Positions 2,257 to 12,122 of a DNA stretch of 12,179 bases are shown here, in pieces. Source of the DNA: Deinococcales bacterium (GTDB lineage: Bacteria > Deinococcota > Deinococci > Deinococcales > JAAFIG01). Location of the stretch: positions 1 to 12,179 of the forward strand of contig JAYWGM010000104.1 in assembly GCA_043778225.1 (NCBI GenBank), in the 5' to 3' direction. Every line of letters begins with the position of its first letter. Within the stretch, counting starts at the first letter, position 1. Below the pieces are notes generated by a model. That model was not told the DNA's origin. It was given only the letters and a program-made list of their open reading frames with translations, and did no database searches. The position numbers were made by a program, and so were the translations under genes.

Positions 2257-2388
2257 ATGACAAAAGAAAAATCTGAAACTCGAGCCAAATACGAGCCGCC
2301 AATTCTCGAGCAGCAAGCAGCTTATGTGGTTTTGACGGGCATCAGTTTACCAATTGGTACAAACATTCTCGAGGAGGAAAGCGAATGA
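2257..2388 (+). CDS. 43-aa peptide 2 with lasso-leader-like YxxPxL motif: MTKEKSETRAKYEPPILEQQAAYVVLTGISLPIGTNILEEESE
   Basis: Hand translation. It has a GAGG ribosome-binding site, an ATGA overlap at 2385-2388 with lipoprotein 2, and is a paralog of 170-301. Confidence 0.8.
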   Translation: MTKEKSETRAKYEPPILEQQAAYVVLTGISLPIGTNILEEESE

Positions 2389-5300
2389 AAAAGTTTTTAC
2401 CAATTCCATTACTATTGTTTGCCTTGCTTGCCTGTCAGCAAACACAAGTCCAACCCATGACGCAAAACCTTGGCACACTCGAGTTGCGGCTTGATAATTC
2501 TGGAAGCACTAAAGGACAAGTGGCTCGAGTGAAAGTTTCGGGGCTACAAACCCAAGGGACGCTGCGTGAAGCCGATGTGACCTTTACAGCTTTGACGACC
2601 GTTGCCACACAAAACGATGGGGCGTTTGATTATGTACAAGCGCAGTTTAGCGTCTTAAACTCGAGCAGTACACCATTTGCTAATTTAACCTTGTACGCCG
2701 TTGCAAAGTCTGGCAACATTGCTGGTACAGCCATTAAAAGCATTACTAATTTTGGCGGACTTACCGATGTCAACGAGCAAACCCGAATTGCCAAGTTGGT
2801 CACGGCTACGCATGGCTTAAACATCTCGAGTACGGGTGCGAGTTTAATTTCTGGGCGTGAGGATATGCAGCTTTTTACGCCAAACGATGTGAATGCTTTA
2901 CAAGCTGACCCTGCTTTGACTTCAAACGGTTTCTCGAGCAACGATAAAGTGCTTGGCTATGGTTTTGTGGCGCGGCGTTGTGTTCCAAATTGCAGCAGTC
3001 CAACTTCGTTTGTTCGGAGTATTCCGGCTGGACAAAGTGGGTTAATCACGATAGCCCTCAGAATTCCACGCAGCAGTGGAACGGCGTACAACTTCATCAT
3101 GACTTTTGCGGTGGTGGATGAACCCATCAATCGAGTCACGCGCAGTGTGTACCCACCTGAAACCCTCAGCGATGCCGAAAGTCGTTTGGTTGGTTTTGGG
3201 GCAAGTTCGAGCAATGAAATCATGCAGTTGGGTTTGGCTCGAGCCACTACGCCAAGCAACAGTTATGTCAATCAAGGTACAGATTTTGTGGCGGTCTCGA
3301 GCAACTCAGAAGATTACACCGCACTTGGTTTGGGACGTTTAAGCAGTGGATTTGATCATTCTTGTGCTTTGACAGCCGTGGGTGCAGCCTATTGTTGGGG
3401 TGGAAATGGATTTGGACAATTGGGCAATAACAGCAAGGACGCAAGCAGCATTCCAGTGCCAGTTGCTGGAAATTTATTGTTCTCGAGTATCAGTGCTGGT
3501 GGCAATACAACCTGTGGTCTGATGCTGGCTGGTGCAGCCTATTGTTGGGGTAGCAATACCGACGGTGGTCTTGGTAATAACAGTCAAACCCAAAGTTTAA
3601 TCCCAGTACCTGTGAGCGGCGGTTTGGTGTTCTCGAGTATTGGGGTCGCTGATACGAATACTGTTTGTGGTTTGACGACTTTTGGTATAGTCGCTTGCTG
3701 GGGTAGTAATGATCGCCAGCAGCTGGGTTTTAACTCAACTGTTCCCAGAAGCCTTACCCCTGTGCTTGTGGCTGGAGGAAGCCAGTTATTCTCGAGCCTG
3801 AGCGTTGGTGGGGCGCATTCGTGCGGCTTGACCGCTTTGGGGGCGGCTTACTGCTGGGGGTTTAATGGCAGTGGGCAATTGGGGGTTGGTACATCTGGTA
3901 CAAACCTTGGGCAACCCACGTTGGTTGGCAATAGTTTAACTTTCTCGAGTATTTACACTGGAACGTACCAGACTTGTGCTTTAACTTCGGATGGTACTGC
4001 CTATTGCTGGGGTCGAAATGATTTTGGTCAACTTGGAACTGCTAACAACACCCAAAGTACCTCGCCGGTGCTGGTCAGTGGCAATCTGCGCTTCTCGAGG
4101 CTAGATGGTGGCGAACAACACACCTGTGGTTTAACCCCGACCAGCACCTTGTACTGTTGGGGTCGTAACAACAATGGCGAATTGGGTACGGGGAACACAA
4201 CCACTACCAATACACCCACTTTGGTTGGTGGTGGGCTGGTATTTGCTGGGTTTTCGACTGGCTGGTTTCACACTTGTGCCATCACCCCAACGGGTCTAAA
4301 GTATTGCTGGGGCAGCAATACAGCCGGGCAAATTGGTAATAACGCAATTTTTGATACCAAAGCACCACGACCAGTCTCTGGTAATCTGACCTTCTCGGGT
4401 GTTTATGCCAACGATAACCATAGCTGTGCTTTAACTTTACTCGACAAAGCCTATTGTTGGGGTACGAATGGCAGTGCGGGGTTACTTGGTAATAACAGCA
4501 CCGTCAATAGCCCAGTGCCTGTCGAAGTCTCGACCACCATAGAATTCTCGAGTTTAACCAGCAATGGCTTTAATCAAACTTGTGGCTTGCAAAAAACCAC
4601 GGGTTTGGCGTATTGCTGGGGGAGTAACACCTATGGTCAATTGGGTACAGGCAATACCACCCGAAGCCTGATACCTATAGCGGTGGTTGCACCAGTTGGA
4701 AGCAGCACCCCTTTGGCTTTCTCGAGTTTGGCGGCTGGCGATGACCACATTTGTGGTATCACCCCGACTCAGGATTTGTACTGCTGGGGTCGGGATAATT
4801 CTGGGCAACTTGGAGACGGGGGAACAAATACCGACAGCAGTCGCCCTGTTAAAATTGGCACGGCTTTTACGGCTGTGACTGGTGGTATAGCCCACACTTG
4901 TGCCATCAGCCCAAGCCCAAATCCGGGCAGTCTGTACTGCTGGGGTCAGAACCGTAGCGGACAACTTGGCGATGGTACAACCGTTGCCAAAAACATACCG
5001 ACGCTGATTGGTTCTGGTTTCTCGAGTGTCAGTGCTGGGAATGGACACACCTGCGCCATACAAACAATCAGTTCGGTAGCAACGACTGTCTGTTGGGGTC
5101 TGAACAGCTTTGGTCAATTGGGTACAGGCAATAACACCATAAGCCTGACCGCCACACCTGTTTCTGGTAATTTTGCTTTTAGCACGGTTGTTGTTGGCGA
5201 AAACCACACCTGTGGTTTACTGACCAATGGTACAGCTTACTGCTGGGGTGATAACGGAAACGGACAAATAGGGAACAACAACACAGTCAATGTCAACACG

Positions 5301-5486
5301 CCAGCTTTGGTCAGTGGCAACTTGAGTTTCTCGGGTTTAAGTGCTTCATGGAAAAATACTTGCGGCATAACCACCACAAATACAGCCTATTGCTGGGGCG
5401 ATAATATCAACGGAAAAATCGGCTTTGTGCTTCAAACCTTGTTCAGTACCCCAACTCGAGATATGGCTTTGAGTTTCAAGCTCTAA
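2385..5486 (+). CDS. Lipoprotein 2 (1033 aa): shared N-terminal domain plus 14 RCC1-type repeats (probably two 7-bladed propellers)
   Basis: Lipobox LLAC (Cys17). From about residue 316 to the end there are 14 repeats of the form HxC...YCWGxNxxGQLG...PxxV, counted by CWG. Confidence 0.92.
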   Translation: MKKFLPIPLLLFALLACQQTQVQPMTQNLGTLELRLDNSGSTKGQVARVKVSGLQTQGTLREADVTFTALTTVATQNDGAFDYVQAQFSVLNSSSTPFANLTLYAVAKSGNIAGTAIKSITNFGGLTDVNEQTRIAKLVTATHGLNISSTGASLISGREDMQLFTPNDVNALQADPALTSNGFSSNDKVLGYGFVARRCVPNCSSPTSFVRSIPAGQSGLITIALRIPRSSGTAYNFIMTFAVVDEPINRVTRSVYPPETLSDAESRLVGFGASSSNEIMQLGLARATTPSNSYVNQGTDFVAVSSNSEDYTALGLGRLSSGFDHSCALTAVGAAYCWGGNGFGQLGNNSKDASSIPVPVAGNLLFSSISAGGNTTCGLMLAGAAYCWGSNTDGGLGNNSQTQSLIPVPVSGGLVFSSIGVADTNTVCGLTTFGIVACWGSNDRQQLGFNSTVPRSLTPVLVAGGSQLFSSLSVGGAHSCGLTALGAAYCWGFNGSGQLGVGTSGTNLGQPTLVGNSLTFSSIYTGTYQTCALTSDGTAYCWGRNDFGQLGTANNTQSTSPVLVSGNLRFSRLDGGEQHTCGLTPTSTLYCWGRNNNGELGTGNTTTTNTPTLVGGGLVFAGFSTGWFHTCAITPTGLKYCWGSNTAGQIGNNAIFDTKAPRPVSGNLTFSGVYANDNHSCALTLLDKAYCWGTNGSAGLLGNNSTVNSPVPVEVSTTIEFSSLTSNGFNQTCGLQKTTGLAYCWGSNTYGQLGTGNTTRSLIPIAVVAPVGSSTPLAFSSLAAGDDHICGITPTQDLYCWGRDNSGQLGDGGTNTDSSRPVKIGTAFTAVTGGIAHTCAISPSPNPGSLYCWGQNRSGQLGDGTTVAKNIPTLIGSGFSSVSAGNGHTCAIQTISSVATTVCWGLNSFGQLGTGNNTISLTATPVSGNFAFSTVVVGENHTCGLLTNGTAYCWGDNGNGQIGNNNTVNVNTPALVSGNLSFSGLSASWKNTCGITTTNTAYCWGDNINGKIGFVLQTLFSTPTRDMALSFKL

Positions 5487-5519: not shown

Positions 5520-5551
5520 CGTAACGGCTCGTAACGGCGGCTGCGTAAACT
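5520..5551 (+). promoter_or_regulatory. Type A box + 9 nt + TAAACT -10-like hexamer
   Basis: 32-bp exact copy of 2143-2174, with TAAACT at 5546-5551, upstream of lipoprotein 3. Confidence 0.65.
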
Positions 5552-5586
5552 CGAGCGATGTTGCTACGATACTCGAGGAGTAATTT

Positions 5587-8500
5587 ATGCTCATGAAACC
5601 TTTTTTACTTGTTCAAAGTGCTGTTTTTGTTGTTCTGGTCGGTTGTACGTCCATACCTACACCAGTCGATTCCAATGATAAAGTCCTCGGGCGGCTCGAG
5701 GTGGTTTTCTCGAGCGAAAGTGCAGCACCTAAAGCAGTGTTCTCGAGTGCCAAACTCGGTACGGCGGCGCTAACCGTGCAGCCAGAAGCATCGTTTACGT
5801 TTGTACCACCAACCAGTGTGCTGACTCGAGATGCGTCTGGTATTCGTACCCTTTCGGCAACTTTTGGAATTACTCAGACCAGTGGTAGCACCCTACAAAA
5901 TATCATGCTGGTGGCGTACAACCAAGCTGATAACAATGTTGGTGGAACTGCCGTGAAAAACATTTTTACCTTTGGCGGTTCTGCCTCGAGTAGCAACGCA
6001 CAGAGCATTAAACCAGCCCACGGAACGAATGGCTCGTTAGCGGTTGACCCTTTTCGGGCTGACATGGGTATTTTGTTACCACTCGAGGCAAATAATTTAA
6101 CAGTAGCGGCGCGTAATGCTGGTGTGATTGGCGCATCCGACACCGCCCTCGAGTACGGTTTTATTGCCCGTAGAAGTGCCACTTCGCACCTAAGAAGCAT
6201 TGCCAGTGGCAGCACAGGGCAAGTCACCTTGGCGGTACAGCTTCCTACAGCGCAAGATAATGCGCCAACCACTGCGCCGTATCGTTTTGCCTTGACTTTT
6301 ATTGTCACCACCGACGACACCGATATTGTTACCCAGTCACTCGAGGAGCAAAATAACGATGCCTTGGTTTCGGCTCGAATCGCTGCGATTGGTAAGAGTA
6401 CCACGGTGCGACTTTTGCGCGGCAGTTCTTTTACAGGACGACCACAACAACGCTTGTGTGGGACGCGCTTGGCAACTGGTAACGCGGCGTTCCTGACCGC
6501 CCCGAGTTTGGGTTTTCTGGGTGCGAGACTTAATCCAGACAGTACGTTAACGGCTGATTTCGATGCGCCGTTGGACTCGAGCAGTTTAGGAAATGGTTTG
6601 GTGATCCAGGGTTTACGAAGCGGTAAGCGCCTTGCGGGTCTGAGCTTGGTTGGTAACAGTGTCCAGTTTACACCAACCAGCCCCACCCAAGAATTCAGTC
6701 ATGGCGAGGAGGTGCTGCTGAGTGTTACCAATCAACTTCGCAGTGTCGAAGGTGGTCAGTTATGCGGACAACCAGCCCAAAGTAAATTGTTTCGCATGGA
6801 CTCGAGCCGCAAAGATCAGGTGCTGAGTTACCGCCGCCCAATCAAAATAGCCATGAATGCAGGTACGCTTGGTGGGCAACGAATCAGTGCTTTAGCTGAC
6901 CTGAACAACGACGGTAAAGCCGATTTGGTCACAATAAGTATGCTCGAGAGTAAAGTTTTTACACGCCTTGGTACGGGTTTGGATAATACTTATTTTGGAG
7001 CGCTGACCACAACCAACTTAATTGAGCGACCCAAAGATTTGGATATTGCCGATATGAACAGCGATAGTCTGTTGGATTTGGTGATTCACAATCTTGGCAG
7101 CCCAAGTTCGTTCAGTATTTTGCTTGGAAATGGGCTTGGGGGTTTCTCGAGCCTGACGACCTTTCCTTTGACTGGAACAGGTAATGAGGACGTTTTAGCG
7201 CTAGGTGATGTGACAGGCGATGGTAAACCCGATCTGGTCACACTTGAAAATACATCAATTCGCTTAGAACTTGTGGTTGTTACGCGGGCAAATAGCACCA
7301 TAGCTGGGGCTTTTATACCCACTTTTGGGGCAATTGGTAGACAAATCATTACGATAAATTCAACTACCAATACGTCCCCACCTTCACCACACCGGCTGGT
7401 CATTGATGACCTCGATTTGAACGGGGTTGCAGATACGATCATTGCAATACAAAAAACTTTTGAGGGAAATAATGATTTTACGCTGTTATACAAGTCAATG
7501 AATGGTGGTGCATTCCAATCGCTTGATGCTTTACAAAGTCAAAGCTGTACAATTGCTACAGCAAATTTAGATAACGACCCGCAAAAAGAAATTGGCTTCG
7601 CTTGCAATGGGCAAAACTCCGCCATTCGCTTTCCAAACAATAGTCTTACTTTGCTGCAAAAATCAAATTTGCTCATACTTGAAAACAGTGTATTTGCTGA
7701 CCTAAACGGCGATGGTAAAAAAGAATGGATTACGGTTGGTATCAACAATACCAGTACCTTGGCACAAAGTTCACTCGAGGTGCGTTACTCAGCCGAAGGG
7801 GGGTTATTTGGATTCAGCACCATGATTCCAGGTTTTCTTACCCCACAAGGAGATAATGGCAACCAAAATTTATTTGGGGTTGCTGCGGCTGACCTGAACG
7901 GCGATGGAAAATTAGAAATCGTGGCTGGTGACGATGACGCGGGCGCTCAGGTCTGGCGGCACGAAAAAATTGGTTCGTTCAGAAAAATTTCGGTCAGTGC
8001 ATTAAACCCTCGAGACATCATGGCGGCTGATTTAACCAACGATGGAAAAACCGATATTGCCGTGGCAAACGTACAAACCTCTGGTATTTACTTGCACCGA
8101 GGTACAGACAATGGTTTTGCAACCCAAGAATCCATTGCTGTTCAATCCAGTCAAGTGACCCTGGCTTCGGGTGATGCCAACAATGATGGTCGGGTAGATG
8201 CTTTTGTGGCTGCCGGTTTTGGCTTGGGAATTCAACTCTCGAGCAGGACAGGTGGTTTTACTGCGGGTACAGGTACAGCCGAATCTTTTACTATTCAAGG
8301 CTTAGCTGTCACAGACTTTAACAATGACGGTAATTTAGATGCAATTGTCAGTGGTTTTGGAACTGCGCCGCTTCGTATCCTGCTCGGTGATGGAACAGGT
8401 GCATTTACCACTGGAACAACCCAAGCCAGCACCGATGTCAGTCAATTGATGGTCGCCGACATCAACGCCGATGGCAATATGGACGTACTGGCATTACAAA

Positions 8501-8964
8501 GTACCCAAATCGCGGTGTTCTTAGGTTCAGGAGATGGTAATTTAACCCCTGCCACACCAATAACAACCACGGCTCGAGCCTTTGCTCTAACCGACATCAA
8601 CGCCGATAACACCCCTGATATTATTTACGCCACTGGTACAAACCTCGAGTACCGCTTAAATAGCGCACGTGTTTTCGGCAGTCCTCAAGTCATCAATAGC
8701 CCATTTCAACCTGTTACATCCAACAGCCTAGCCATTGGTGATTTTAACGGTGATGGTTTCAATGACTTGCTTGCTACCAATGGCAATAATGTCATGCTTT
8801 ATGGTGGGCTTTCGACAGGTGGTTTTGCCGTGTTTGCAACAGCTTCTGAGGCTGGTTTAAGCCCAAGCAAATTACAAGCTGCCGATATTAACCAAGATGG
8901 CTTACTAGATGCGTTTGTCACTAACATAACTGAAAATTCGATTACCTTGCTGCTCCGTTTCTAA
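5587..8964 (+). CDS. Lipoprotein 3 (1125 aa; start may be ATG 5593): shared N-terminal domain, Ig-like domain and 14 FG-GAP/VCBS repeats
   Basis: Lipobox LVGC. An Ig-like segment reads FDAPLDSSSL...VQFTPT...GEEVLLSVTNQLRS. Fourteen DxNxDGxxD-like motifs run from DLNNDGKAD to DINQDGLLD. Confidence 0.9.
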   Translation: MLMKPFLLVQSAVFVVLVGCTSIPTPVDSNDKVLGRLEVVFSSESAAPKAVFSSAKLGTAALTVQPEASFTFVPPTSVLTRDASGIRTLSATFGITQTSGSTLQNIMLVAYNQADNNVGGTAVKNIFTFGGSASSSNAQSIKPAHGTNGSLAVDPFRADMGILLPLEANNLTVAARNAGVIGASDTALEYGFIARRSATSHLRSIASGSTGQVTLAVQLPTAQDNAPTTAPYRFALTFIVTTDDTDIVTQSLEEQNNDALVSARIAAIGKSTTVRLLRGSSFTGRPQQRLCGTRLATGNAAFLTAPSLGFLGARLNPDSTLTADFDAPLDSSSLGNGLVIQGLRSGKRLAGLSLVGNSVQFTPTSPTQEFSHGEEVLLSVTNQLRSVEGGQLCGQPAQSKLFRMDSSRKDQVLSYRRPIKIAMNAGTLGGQRISALADLNNDGKADLVTISMLESKVFTRLGTGLDNTYFGALTTTNLIERPKDLDIADMNSDSLLDLVIHNLGSPSSFSILLGNGLGGFSSLTTFPLTGTGNEDVLALGDVTGDGKPDLVTLENTSIRLELVVVTRANSTIAGAFIPTFGAIGRQIITINSTTNTSPPSPHRLVIDDLDLNGVADTIIAIQKTFEGNNDFTLLYKSMNGGAFQSLDALQSQSCTIATANLDNDPQKEIGFACNGQNSAIRFPNNSLTLLQKSNLLILENSVFADLNGDGKKEWITVGINNTSTLAQSSLEVRYSAEGGLFGFSTMIPGFLTPQGDNGNQNLFGVAAADLNGDGKLEIVAGDDDAGAQVWRHEKIGSFRKISVSALNPRDIMAADLTNDGKTDIAVANVQTSGIYLHRGTDNGFATQESIAVQSSQVTLASGDANNDGRVDAFVAAGFGLGIQLSSRTGGFTAGTGTAESFTIQGLAVTDFNNDGNLDAIVSGFGTAPLRILLGDGTGAFTTGTTQASTDVSQLMVADINADGNMDVLALQSTQIAVFLGSGDGNLTPATPITTTARAFALTDINADNTPDIIYATGTNLEYRLNSARVFGSPQVINSPFQPVTSNSLAIGDFNGDGFNDLLATNGNNVMLYGGLSTGGFAVFATASEAGLSPSKLQAADINQDGLLDAFVTNITENSITLLLRF

Positions 8965-8969
8965 GTGGG

Positions 8970-9003
8970 TTCGTAACGCTTCGTAACGGCAGGAGCTTAT
9001 CTT
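8970..9003 (+). promoter_or_regulatory. Type A-like box (TTCGTAACG-C-TTCGTAACG) + 9 nt + TATCTT hexamer, oriented antisense to the regulator
   Basis: Direct repeat at 8970-8978 and 8980-8988. TANNNT at 8998-9003 has the same 9-nt spacing as the other five copies. Confidence 0.5.
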
Positions 9004-11846
9004 GTTTTTTTGGTCAGCATCGGCTCGAGTTTTGGTAAGCCTTGGGCAAAGGCAATCGCTTGGTCTACGCTCATGGCTTGCCCTTGTTGGTAGGCAGCCT
9101 CGGCTTTGGCTTGCCCTAGGGCAGTTCTGGCTTGGTTCTCGAGTTGCAAAAAATGCTGGTACTGATGCTCGGCAAGTGGTGAATCAAGGCGCTCGAGAGC
9201 GACTGTTGTTGCCCCAAAGAGTGTCAGGGCTTGGGCTTGGTAGCCTTGGCGAACCAGTGGTTGGGTCAAAACAAGCATGGCGTAAATGGCATCACGGTAA
9301 CGTCCATCGCGCAGGAGTGGCAGCGCCTCGAGCAGGTGTTGTTGGGCTAAAGCATCGTTGCCTTCGGCTATTGCAGCTTCGCCTAAGCCGTATAACGAAG
9401 CGCCGATGTTGGTTTGGTTGCCAAGCGCTCGGGTCAAGGACAGGCTTTGTTCGATCAATTGGTATTTTTCGGGGCTGGGTGGCAGGATGTCGGCAATGTT
9501 CTGCAAAGCAATGGCTTGTCCGTTGCGGTGTCCACAAATGTTGGCGCATTCAAGGCTCTGTTCAAAGTATTGCTTGGCAATTATTTTGTCGTTGCGGTCA
9601 CAGGCGATTCGTCCAAGGTCATTCAAGGTGTTGACCATGCCATGAACATCATTTTCTTGGCGTTGGATTTGTAGGGCTTGGCGGATGCGAATTTCGGCGG
9701 CTTGAAGTTGTCCGCGCATGATTGCATTTGCGCCCCACCACCCAAGGGCTTTGGCATGAAGCACAGGCTGGTCGAGTATCGAAAAAATTTTGATCGCATT
9801 CTCGAGGTGCTGACAGGCTCGGGAGTACAGTGCCAAAAAATCACCTTGGATACCCAATGCCAATTCGGCTCGAGCCAATAACAAGGCATCGCTGGGTGGT
9901 TGGTACTGGGCAATCGCGGTTTGAAGGGCGTTCCAGGCTTCAAGGGTGCGTGAACGCAAATGAAAATAGCGTGGTAAAGCTGCCAAGGTTCGCAACACCA
10001 AAGCAGGGTCGGTGTTGTATTCAAAGACCGCCATGATATTTTGGTGCTGACTGGTGACTTTGTTGAGCCAAGTGATTTGTTGCGGTCCGCCGCGCAGGGC
10101 TATTTCGGCTTGCTCGGCAAAATGGGCAAAATACTGGGCGTGTGTGCGTTGCAGCTTCTTCAAAGCTGGTTGCTCGAGTTTTTTAAGCGCATAAGTTTGT
10201 ACCAAAGGGTGCAGTTCGTAACGCCCTCCATGTTGATGCAGCAATGACCGTGCCAGCAAACCGAGCAGTGAACGCGCCGAGACCCCCATACCTTCAAGTG
10301 CGGCTGGTCGGTCAAAACCACCTTGGAAGACACTGATGGCGCTCAGGGTTTGGCGCAAGTCATCCTCGAGTAATTCCCATGAATGCTCAAAAACCGTGCG
10401 TAAAGACCGATGCGCCTCGGGAATTTCTGGCTCGTTGACCTCGAGCCATTCGGCATTGGCTTCTAAACCTTCAATCAAGGCTTCTAAACTCAGTTCGCCC
10501 AGCCAAGCGGCAGCCAGTTCTAACCCAAGTGGTAAACCCTGCACAAGTTGACAGATTCGTAAAATACCCGCCAAGGTGTTGGAGTTTAAGGTAAAACCAC
10601 CACGCCGCCGTGCCGCCCGTGCCACAAAAAGTTGTACTGCACTGGCAGCCCGAGCAGCTTCGAGGTCTGGGTTATCTGGGTAAGCCAATCCCCCTAAGGT
10701 CAATACCCATTCGTTGGGGATGTTCAAAGCCACTCGAGAAGTCAAAAGCAAAGTCAGTTGCGGGGCTGCTTCCAGCCAAGCATTGAGCGGTTCGGCAAGC
10801 CCACCAAGATGCTCGACGTTATCCAGCACCAAAAGGACACGACTTTCTTGGAAGTGTTGACCGATTTGTAACCACGGGCTACTGTCAGCCCGTAAGTTAA
10901 AGCCAAGCACAGCAGCGACTGCCAAAGGCACATCATCTGGGTTGCGAATATCGCGCAGGGTCAACCAAATGGCACGGTCAAATAGGTTTTTTTGCTGCTC
11001 GAGAATTTCTTTGGCAAGGGTGGTTTTGCCGATGCCACCGAGTCCACGCAACATCATTAAACGTGTGCCTGCCATAAATTGAGCGCCTATCTCGGCTTGT
11101 TCGGCTTGACGACCGACAAATCGCAAATTTGTATCTGGCTGTACTTGTCCTTTTAAGGTTGCAACCAGCGCCAGTGTTTCGGGTTGAGGTTCGACCCCTA
11201 AATCGGTGCGTAAACGCGCTTGAAACAATTCAAATTGGCGCAGCGCCACTTGGTTTGAGCCAAGCACTGTGGCGTGTTTGAGTAAGCCATGCAAGGCTTC
11301 TTCGTTGTATGGGTCAAGCTCGAGTAACTGCACCAATAAATTTGGCAAACTGGCATCTGGGCTTGAATCGAGTTCTTGGATTCGTCCAATCAGGGCTGTG
11401 CGCCAATCTTCATGCAGTGCGGCACGTTCGGTCTCGAGCCATGCTCCAAAAGCAGTCGGGGTTAAAAGCCCCTCGAGTAACGCACCGCCGTAGACCGCCA
11501 ATGCTTTTTGCCAATCGGCTTGACGAATCGCGGTTCTAAATTGGCTCACATCGGATGGCACACTTAAACGCAGTGCCTTGGTATTGCCCTCTATCGCCTT
11601 AGCCCACTTGAGGTTTTTAGAGCGGTGCAAAAGTTGCCGTAAATTATTACGAGCATCGGACTCGGGTACATCTGCCCATAAAAGCGTGGCGATTTCGGCA
11701 CGTTCGACCCAAGTTTCGGCTGCCGCCAAATAGGCGAATAACCACAGCATTGGGCTGGGTGGAATCGCTGTTTGATCAACCCAGCGTGCCGAACCCAACA
11801 AGCGCAAAGGCACGGCGGTCACAGGCAAAGCAAAAATCCCTGTCAT
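8997..11846 (-). CDS. AfsR/SARP-family large ATP-binding transcriptional regulator (wHTH + BTAD + NB-ARC-like P-loop + TPR repeats)
   Basis: wHTH motifs RAEIATLLW...NNLRQLLHR; BTAD motifs DVSQF...ALAVYGGALLEG...LELDPYNE...LGVEP; Walker A GLGGIGKT, Walker B LLVLDNVEH and GLPLGLELAA; C-terminal TPR-like helices. I placed the start at ATG 11846 because TATCGT lies 7 nt upstream. The open frame extends to 11912. Confidence 0.9.
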   Translation of the reverse strand: MTGIFALPVTAVPLRLLGSARWVDQTAIPPSPMLWLFAYLAAAETWVERAEIATLLWADVPESDARNNLRQLLHRSKNLKWAKAIEGNTKALRLSVPSDVSQFRTAIRQADWQKALAVYGGALLEGLLTPTAFGAWLETERAALHEDWRTALIGRIQELDSSPDASLPNLLVQLLELDPYNEEALHGLLKHATVLGSNQVALRQFELFQARLRTDLGVEPQPETLALVATLKGQVQPDTNLRFVGRQAEQAEIGAQFMAGTRLMMLRGLGGIGKTTLAKEILEQQKNLFDRAIWLTLRDIRNPDDVPLAVAAVLGFNLRADSSPWLQIGQHFQESRVLLVLDNVEHLGGLAEPLNAWLEAAPQLTLLLTSRVALNIPNEWVLTLGGLAYPDNPDLEAARAASAVQLFVARAARRRGGFTLNSNTLAGILRICQLVQGLPLGLELAAAWLGELSLEALIEGLEANAEWLEVNEPEIPEAHRSLRTVFEHSWELLEDDLRQTLSAISVFQGGFDRPAALEGMGVSARSLLGLLARSLLHQHGGRYELHPLVQTYALKKLEQPALKKLQRTHAQYFAHFAEQAEIALRGGPQQITWLNKVTSQHQNIMAVFEYNTDPALVLRTLAALPRYFHLRSRTLEAWNALQTAIAQYQPPSDALLLARAELALGIQGDFLALYSRACQHLENAIKIFSILDQPVLHAKALGWWGANAIMRGQLQAAEIRIRQALQIQRQENDVHGMVNTLNDLGRIACDRNDKIIAKQYFEQSLECANICGHRNGQAIALQNIADILPPSPEKYQLIEQSLSLTRALGNQTNIGASLYGLGEAAIAEGNDALAQQHLLEALPLLRDGRYRDAIYAMLVLTQPLVRQGYQAQALTLFGATTVALERLDSPLAEHQYQHFLQLENQARTALGQAKAEAAYQQGQAMSVDQAIAFAQGLPKLEPMLTKKTR

Positions 11847-11930
11847 TGAATCCACGATAATCAGTATGCAACTTTTGATCACTTTTGCCAAATACGATTG
11901 GCTTTGTGCCAATCCTCGGCTGGTGTCTAA

Positions 11931-11963
11931 AAGTACGTCCGTGTGACGCTCGAGCAGTAATTT
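11931..11963 (+). promoter_or_regulatory. Type B box variant (AAGTACGTCCGTGTGACG) + 9 nt + TAATTT -10-like hexamer
   Basis: 11931-11950 matches 121-140 at 18 of 20 positions. TAATTT is at 11958-11963 and an ATG at 11970 lies at leaderless distance. Confidence 0.6.
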
Positions 11964-12122
11964 ATGCGTATGAAGCCTTTTTTACGTGTTCAAAGTGCTG
12001 TTTTTGCTGTTCTGGTCGGTTGTACGTCCATGCCTACTACACCCGCGCCAGTTGAGTCTAGTCAAGTCCTCGGGCGGCTCGAGGTAGGGCAAACGCACCA
12101 AGTTGAGCTTGCTGTACCCTAA
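11964..12122 (+). pseudogene. IS-truncated fourth lipoprotein gene, paralog of the lipoprotein 3 N-terminus
   Basis: MRMKPFLRVQSAVFAVLVGCTSMPTTPAPVESSQVLGRLEV closely matches MLMKPFLLVQSAVFVVLVGCTSIPTPVDSNDKVLGRLEV. Similarity stops abruptly at ~12085 and the frame ends at TAA 12120-12122. Confidence 0.8.

Follow-up and report, generated by a model that had tools for sequence, protein, structure and literature searches.

Short lipoprotein-coupled peptide genes with a lasso-type leader in a Deinococcales bacterium: candidate precursors of linear phosphorylated RiPPs

The window analysed here is an entire contig of 12,179 nt from a 4.0-Mb genome, and contains two paralogous ORFs of 43 aa each, at 170-301 and 2257-2388. 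The second is the gene under study, and the features around it are as follows.

2257-2388, + strand: copy 2 of the peptide gene (43 aa), in which aa 1-28 form the leader and aa 29-43 the predicted core
2290-2307, + strand: YxxPxL recognition motif, Y12/P15/L17 at -17/-14/-12, putative docking site for a PqqD-type RRE; columns invariant in 89 sequences
2311-2334, + strand: the "variable middle" QQAAYVVL, the end of the leader, with the conserved aromatic Y23 (-6)
2335-2340, + strand: Thr(-2)-Gly(-1), with Gly28 as the predicted last residue before the B2 cut; the TfuA alignment ends at TG, and lasso leaders have Thr or Ile at -2 (PMC10368454, in part)
2341-2385, + strand: predicted core ISLPIGTNILEEESE, with Ser30 (2344-2346) as predicted phosphorylation site and without a ring-forming residue
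2371-2388, + strand: GAGGAGG (2371-2377) as ribosome-binding site, then an ATGA stop/start overlap; both link the peptide to lipoprotein 2 at the sequence level
2212-2225, + strand: ACG-N8-ACG direct repeat 45 nt upstream of copy 2, possibly a SARP-type regulator box
2143-2174, + strand: 32-nt element with tandem TAACGGC; identical copy at 5520-5551
2385-5486, + strand: lipoprotein 2, 1033 aa, with lipobox, an unnamed beta-sandwich domain of ~290 aa and an RCC1-repeat passenger
170-301, + strand: peptide gene copy 1, 43 aa, with a leader one residue shorter (Y at -16) and the same core
125-138, + strand: ACG-N8-ACG direct repeat upstream of copy 1
298-2097, + strand: lipoprotein 1, 599 aa, same N-terminal domain family, ATGA overlap with copy 1
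5587-8964, + strand: lipoprotein 3, 1125 aa, same N-terminal domain followed by FG-GAP repeats
8997-11912, - strand: BTAD + NB-ARC + TPR (SARP/AfsR-like) regulator, a likely controller of such operons

No peptide gene lies within 700 nt before the domain of lipoprotein 3. At 5520-5586 this gene shares the 32-nt TAACGGC element with the second cassette, and ahead of it there is only a remnant-like stretch (...ATILEE-stop) that contains the ribosome-binding site. At 11926-12122, divergent from the regulator, a third ACG-N8-ACG box is followed by a 52-aa truncated copy of the lipoprotein 3 start (92% identity over 89 nt); this may be a relic or mark an assembly break, and contig C35 ends in a start-less paralog.

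The two peptides are 70-72% identical with two offsetting one-codon gaps, as aligned by tblastn and at the DNA level. The original prediction of a paralog pair with constant flanks is borne out by a flank dN/dS of 0.05 (five synonymous and one non-synonymous difference in 28 codons; dS 0.314, dN 0.016), and the alignment contains both the synonymous changes that had been listed (CCG/CCA, ACA/ACG, ATT/ATC, GGC/GGT) and the offsetting indels that keep each product at 43 aa. The description of the middles as completely different goes too far, since residue 23, Phe in copy 1 and Tyr in copy 2, is an aromatic that lies four residues ahead of the Thr in each, with a hydrophobic residue between. Over all 42 aligned codons of the pair dS is 0.569 and dN 0.172, giving a dN/dS of 0.30, and the value pooled over 20 disjoint pairs of homologs, chosen by lipoprotein identity above 70% and in some cases near saturation, is 0.34, both in agreement with the proposal that selection acts on the protein. 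Nevertheless, part of the flank identity is not due to protein selection, because CTCGAG words, a ribosome-binding site within the EEES codons and recent duplication contribute to it. Each window copy contains three CTCGAG hexamers, and the EEES tail codons contain the GAGGAGG of the next gene, as read from the sequence. Genome-wide, CTCGAG is found at 24,877 sites (6.2 per kb); this very strong signature of the genome has an influence on the choice of codons. The upstream non-coding DNA of the two copies is identical at 46 of 54 bases, which argues for a recent duplication of promoter and peptide together. A second possible start of copy 1, the ATG at 143 further upstream, is absent in copy 2; the start at 170 is the one that corresponds to that of copy 2.

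Neither window peptide has a Pfam or NCBIfam match. The gene is real, and this genome holds 15 copies, of which 13 lie directly ahead of a lipoprotein gene, one ahead of another such copy and one behind a lipoprotein gene. A model of the 15 sequences matched 15 of 18 other genomes of the same family and none of 12 from other families, and in the order as a whole a broader peptide model matched 32 of 151 genomes, among them 23 of the 43 from the genus Deinococcus (g7). The profile search gave 277 representatives at E 0.001, the best 150 of which are listed. Of 246 unique sequences 242 were anchored, 182 with the Y..TG spacing of copy 2, 53 one residue shorter as in copy 1 and seven with neither, so that the one-codon indel of the window pair is a family-wide variant. 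Since a pattern defined both the anchor and the TG class, these columns are partly fixed by construction; among columns not fixed in this way are an aromatic four before the Thr (97%), a Glu after the Leu (98%), a Ser two after the Gly (74%) and a His (55%). At the Y23 offset the 182 same-spacing sequences have Tyr (36%), Phe (31%) or Trp (30%), and Y12, P15 and L17 do not vary in the 89-sequence alignment. The lipoprotein coupling is also recurrent: among 100 copies read from fetched loci, with flags counted by hand, the next gene has a lipobox in 82 and is joined by an ATGA overlap in 68, with a Shine-Dalgarno-like word in the last codons of 67 of these 68. Given that the peptides were collected from stop-to-stop ORFs, broken copies are under-counted; those seen are one clear frameshift (G007:C280) and two degenerate copies (G040).

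Several loci depart from the common arrangement. Short copies with a core of two to six residues occur at G000:C60:13188-13373, L078, L094, L103 and L149, several without a lipoprotein gene after them. At G000:C49:10364-10677 (L008), tandem peptide genes, each overlapping the next gene by ATGA, precede one lipoprotein. The operons at L141, L143, L146, L150 and L171 do not end with the lipoprotein gene: they also contain three short genes that resemble one another and genes for a periplasmic binding protein and a GNAT acetyltransferase, and a phage tail Collar domain was confirmed in one of the three short genes of L141.

The leader is of the lasso type. Comparison of the 89-sequence profile with 177,635 PDB sequences gave a sole, weak match (E 0.027), to the TfuA-Leader of 6jx3_A, and this 22-residue fusilassin leader aligns without gaps across all 22 residues and ends at TG; the NF033521 lasso leader was matched by one of the 15 copies (3.5e-4). 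According to passages of PMC10368454, YxxPxL occupies positions -17 to -12 of lasso leaders, position -2 is Thr or Ile, and a kinase phosphorylates core Ser3 with the help of an RRE (BsfA/BsfK). Copy 2 fits this leader geometry exactly, and copy 1 and 53 of the 242 sequences are one residue shorter. A Ser or Thr is found at core position 2-3 in 193 of 227 cores, and in 20 of 24 Deinococcus peptides the first Ser/Thr after the T(-2) cut is at core position 3, as in BsfA. Furthermore, the family spacing Y..T(+15)..S(+18), with His at +8 (55%), is that of the LPP consensus YxxPxVLxHQxIxFETxxS, the Ser of which is phosphorylated (PMC13381572, in part). The residue at T+3 is Ser in 74% of the 182 sequences, both window copies included, and the Ser lies at T+4 in most Deinococcus copies.

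Formation of a lasso ring calls for a core that starts with Gly, Ala, Ser or Cys and has Asp or Glu at positions 7-9. The ring Gly1-Asp8 is one example (PMC10368454, in part). Only 8 of 227 cores, none of 24 from Deinococcus and neither window core combine these residues, and the window cores begin with Ile and have their first acid at position 11. It is conceivable that the lasso cluster on contig C92 (B2, B1, cyclase) acts in trans and cyclises these peptides as normal lasso precursors, given that the leader geometry is that of lasso peptides and that the genome carries a full lasso gene set. However, this is very improbable for three reasons: first, the C92 cluster has a WxxP precursor of its own; second, the cores do not have the ring residues; third, full-length Asn_synthase (PF00733) was found in 8 of the 31 genomes tested and beside a peptide in none, and no homolog of this genome's cyclase occurs in the 31 peptide neighbourhoods. 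The C92 cluster was rejected as the processing machinery. The product should be linear because ring-forming residues are absent and the cassette has no macrolactam cyclase, and judged by this absence of ring residues and cyclase the window peptide is not a lasso peptide. The C92 cluster itself (G000:C92:39625-46219; L017, L019) is complete in the order B2-B1-C-A, and is followed by genes read from sequence as RRE-fused methyltransferase-like, glycosyltransferase-like and kinase-like. Next to it, at G000:C92:36938-39628, lies an 896-aa IMP dehydrogenase-like ORF with an apparent intein and homing endonuclease (C...HN-S motifs, by eye).

The variable segment had been proposed to set specificity for a cognate partner, in which case the peptide would pair with the downstream lipoprotein through its middle. 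The lipobox gene next to 82 of 100 copies and the ATGA overlap of 68 are in keeping with such a partnership, and the similarity of the middle does rise weakly with that of the lipoprotein (Mantel rho 0.15; 75 peptide-lipoprotein pairs, one further pair dropped for a missing motif; null sd 0.03). However, core (0.24) and tail (0.19) track the lipoprotein better than the middle does, the core even among distant lipoproteins, and below 45% lipoprotein identity the value of the middle drops to 0.08. Pooled dN/dS is 0.43 in the middle and 0.42 in the YxxPxL region, compared with 0.20 in the core and 0.33 in the tail, and as the middle resembles the YxxPxL region it is not diversifying. Individual cases point the same way: lipoproteins that are 86-92% identical follow peptides with the middles QNYVTL, PTFTVV and ESYVLL and the same core, whereas the two window peptides, 72% identical, precede lipoproteins that are only 24% identical, and lipoprotein 2 and its 60%-identical paralog have peptides that are 28% identical. 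Over 12 cassettes of this genome peptide and lipoprotein similarity are only loosely tied (rho 0.30), and no exception is clearer than the window pair. Given also that the middle aligns with the removable leader of TfuA, a pairing code in this segment is very unlikely; on these alignments the variable middle is the C-terminal part of a putative removable leader and not a partner-matching code.

Enzymes that could act on such a leader are found with the peptides. In Deinococcus a five-gene cassette of fusion, kinase, RRE, peptide and lipoprotein recurs, without a cyclase. Among the first 11 out-of-family loci, which were found before any enzyme search, an RRE (PqqD protein) and an HPrK-like kinase lie beside the peptide in seven and an NTP_transf_5-Transglut_core3 fusion also does so in five; a further 14 Deinococcus loci, selected for fusion-peptide closeness, all have the RRE and the kinase. 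No enzyme gene adjoins the window peptides in the present genome: an RRE-kinase pair is on contig C64 (G000) and the single nucleotidyltransferase-B2 fusion on C44. The domains PF05402 (RRE) and PF13471 (B2) score above cut-off and are encoded in trans here and clustered in Deinococcus; PF14907, also above cut-off, is present in a single copy fused to B2. Of the five genomes of the window's family that have both peptide and fusion, none has them within 10 kb of each other, and in one relative (L195) an RRE-kinase pair lies 3.3 kb from a peptide copy. The enzymes of this genome retain the B2 Cys/His, DxD and Walker A motifs. The C64 kinase, which has the Walker A motif, has no Pfam match at E 0.01 and weak HPrK matches in the PDB at E 0.9, and is 27% identical to a relative that matches Hpr_kinase_C at 1.6e-5, below the curated cut-off. 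The C64 RRE matches TbiB1/TfuB1 and has Asn32/Asp68; in an alignment with TfuB1 and four cassette RREs the Asp is present in 4/4 and the Asn in 3/4. The RRE of the C92 cluster, whose precursor is WxxP, has Glu at this site, and Asn/Asp versus Glu has been described for the discrimination of Y and W leaders (PMC13381572, in part).

The C44 fusion adjoins genes read from sequence as dTDP-sugar enzymes. A different type of cluster, L202 (G148:C8), has RRE, B2 and kinase genes together with a YxxPxL peptide, the core of which is very short, and a nucleotidyltransferase-like gene that stands alone. The degenerate PqqD-like protein at G000:C99:59876-60217 is below the Pfam cut-off and in an unrelated context.

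Across the 151 genomes, counted with no correction for kinship, the peptide occurs in 32, the fusion in 36 and both in 29, with three genomes having the peptide only and seven a fusion-like match only, of which six are partial (E above 1e-33). In Deinococcus, where kin are not independent, 22 genomes have both, one the peptide only, none the fusion only and 20 neither. The two lie within 8 kb of each other in 16 of the 29 genomes with both (coordinates compared by hand). One genome, G141, has enzymes and lipoproteins and no detected peptide, and its contigs end beside these genes. Conversely, peptides thin out where the enzymes are not found. In G007, of the same genus as the window genome, no RRE, B2 or fusion match was obtained; it has 15 lipoprotein-domain matches and only two peptide matches, one frameshifted and one intact (L024), and no peptide was detected before 10 lipoprotein genes examined, the controls scoring 19-61 bits. 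Because this genome is 94% complete, enzyme loss is likely. In G040 the RRE and B2 were not matched and the two peptide matches look degenerate.

Taken together, a lasso-type leader, a conserved core Ser and lipoprotein coupling are observed, and we infer from sequence that the peptide is the precursor of a linear phosphorylated RiPP, made by a cyclase-free, lasso-derived pathway with enzymes acting in trans (probability about 0.8). RRE binding, phosphorylation, the cleavage site and nucleotidyl transfer are its predicted steps. The stand-alone PqqD-type RRE (G000:C64) would bind YxxPxL, the adjacent HPrK-like kinase would phosphorylate Ser30, the B2 domain of the fusion (G000:C44) would cut after Thr-Gly, and the nucleotidyltransferase domain would probably add a sugar or nucleotide to the phosphate. 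The product would be a phosphopeptide of 15 residues, linear and acidic, whose synthesis accompanies that of the lipoprotein. Flanks would be constant and the leader spacer free to drift because one enzyme set serves all copies. One enzyme set for 15 dispersed precursors, beside an orthogonal WxxP lasso pathway, would offer a natural setting, outside Bacillota, in which to test how leaders are told apart.

The unnamed ~290-aa N-terminal domain is common to the three lipoproteins of the window, and behind it RCC1, FG-GAP, nuclease, lamin-tail and beta-helix passengers are found. The domain belongs to no Pfam family and matches no PDB sequence, and its fold has no clear counterpart: Foldseek gave nothing at E 0.001, and where a fold shared with type V pilins or TasA-like donor-strand polymers was considered, the best Z was 6.3 (VIA) and the TasA fibre reached 3.0. 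This does not show it to be a new fold. The model of the domain is a beta-sandwich (pLDDT 87) that appears to fold complete on its own. This genome encodes 22 proteins with the domain, 12 of them directly behind a peptide. The domain occurs in 42 of the 151 genomes, several without peptide or enzymes, and 20 genes with the domain had no peptide upstream; the peptide is therefore not required as an obligatory subunit. This bears on whether the peptide might act unmodified, either as a uORF that boosts or regulates lipoprotein translation or as a chaperone or donor strand for the beta-sandwich, its leader likeness being a relic. The tail does provide the ribosome-binding site of the next gene, there is a loose likeness between the core pattern (I/V)SLP(I/V)G and strand one of the lipoprotein domain, and an intact copy remains in the enzyme-less G007. 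However, this explanation leaves unaccounted for the near-perfect co-occurrence and clustering with RRE, kinase and fusion, the invariant YxxPxL and the decay of copies where enzymes are missing, and the domain is complete alone in the model and occurs without the peptide; a donor strand is further disfavoured by the Pro/Gly-rich cores of Deinococcus. An unmodified peptide is therefore considered quite unlikely.

If the peptide is a phosphorylated RiPP precursor, its role is the least certain part of the reading and could take several forms. In the favoured one, the modified core may act on the biogenesis or surface retention of the co-translated lipoproteins as a non-essential modulator, which is plausible at somewhat below even odds and is counted against by the lack of a conserved exporter to bring the product to an exported lipoprotein (an MsbA-type gene is within 10 kb of the cassette in only 1 of 16 genomes). 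A free, envelope-related product is possible but a less favoured role, and a signal for BTAD regulators is unlikely. Similarly unlikely is a protein-directed tag in place of a free natural product, whereby every surface lipoprotein of the family would be co-translated with a precursor of its own and the phosphorylated and nucleotidylated or glycosylated core would bind or be transferred to the shared N-terminal domain and govern display, retention or release, with the irradiation-triggered release reported for a D. radiodurans nuclease as an example. The coupling kept in four families, the copy number that tracks the lipoprotein family and the core as the segment best tracking lipoprotein similarity speak for such a tag; the lack of an export route and the lipoproteins that exist without a peptide speak against it. 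If true, this would make RiPP chemistry a routing system for a surface-protein repertoire.

With regard to regulation, direct repeats spaced by 11 nt are typical of SARP-type boxes. An ACG-N7/8-ACG repeat is present in the 140 nt upstream of 7 of the 14 peptide loci of this genome, compared with 2.5% of 5000 random windows, and 8 of the 14 loci are within 10 kb of one of the 23 BTAD regulators in the genome, from which SARP-type control of the peptide operons is suggested. A BTAD regulator was rejected as a core part of the system, being rare near Deinococcus cassettes (1 of 11 out-of-family loci scanned).

A whole homologous set is present in D. radiodurans R1 on plasmid MP1 (NC_000958.1, DR_RS15785-15815), with the B2 fusion, a PqqD protein, a kinase-like hypothetical protein and lipoproteins of the same domain family; there the enzymes lie beside the peptides, whereas in the window genome they are on other contigs. 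The MP1 genes are annotated only gene by gene. Two unannotated peptide genes, at 78605-78769 and 82448-82633, precede the ExeM/NucH extracellular nuclease and an Ig-like protein. The nuclease, DR_B0067 of the literature, equated here with DR_RS15795 by product name and replicon, is a secreted protein that attaches to the hexagonal surface layer and is set free upon irradiation, according to passages of PMC3554781 and PMC6300522, and the nuclease passages of PMC3554781 make no mention of a peptide. Locus L181 matches in its peptides and in the order of its genes. There the raw-read coverage of run X24 on one strand climbs from 6-fold to about 300-fold, 64 molecules have their end at 6590, which is 16 nt ahead of the peptide ATG, and the transcript continues through the nuclease gene; this run is from one study and the strand call assumes the usual library type. 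In the same run the second peptide region was near background, with no clear transcription, and Logan contigs of RNA runs X5 and X10 had flat coverage over the whole stretch. Four motifs of the peptides were absent from six supplement files of the D. radiodurans small-protein study PMC9650054, and no description of the Deinococcus system was found in the literature covered, which lies outside subscription journals. Given that D. radiodurans is genetically tractable and has the full set around the gene of an extracellular nuclease, the proposed pathway is testable there, and the nucleotidyltransferase family, inactive in a published heterologous test, could be studied in a native host.

The closest known systems are the linear polyphosphorylated peptides (LPP) of Bacillota, encoded by lppA-K-B-S-D-N (Popov et al. 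2026, PMC13381572, in part), the main text of which contains neither "Deinococc" nor "lipoprotein". With these the window system shares the YxxP leader, discrete RRE, NTP transferase and absence of a cyclase, and it has a putative HprK-like kinase; also shared are the identical Y..T..S spacing to the phosphorylated Ser, a WxxP lasso pathway resident in the same genome and an NTP-transferase gene near polysaccharide genes (here the C44 fusion). The Asn33/Asp70 pair of the LPP RRE is equivalent by spacing to Asn32/Asp68 of the C64 RRE, which was aligned to TfuB1 and the cassette RREs. In contrast, the leader peptidase of LPP is SpI-like and here would be a B2 cysteine protease fused to a nucleotidyltransferase (of 46 matches to the S26 peptidase PF10502, spread over 17 genomes, not one is closer than 10 kb to a cassette, and no peptidase of this type is among the 14 features of locus L199); an MsbA-like exporter belongs to the LPP cluster and none is conserved in the cassette; and the window system, in the phylum Deinococcota, has precursors scattered over the genome, as many as 16 in one, most of them coupled to a lipoprotein gene. 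The system would work like LPP, but it is not filed as LPP because the SpI peptidase and the exporter are not part of the cassette.

A further close comparison is with the phosphorylated lasso peptides, namely Bsf of Bradymonas (PMC10368454, in part) and paeninodin and pseudomycoidin (PMC8498205, in part). These share YxxPxL at -17 to -12, Thr/Ile/Val at -2, split B1/B2, a kinase (BsfK acts on core Ser3) and a nucleotidyltransferase, and nucleotidyltransferase-B2 fusions occur in some lasso clusters (PMC8498205, in part). Unlike them, the cassette described here has no macrolactam cyclase, ring residues or D exporter, and has a coupled lipoprotein. The predicted pathway would extend the linear phosphorylated RiPPs, described in Bacillota in 2026, to Deinococcota, where another kind of peptidase would be used. 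Its constant association with surface lipoproteins provides a handle on function.
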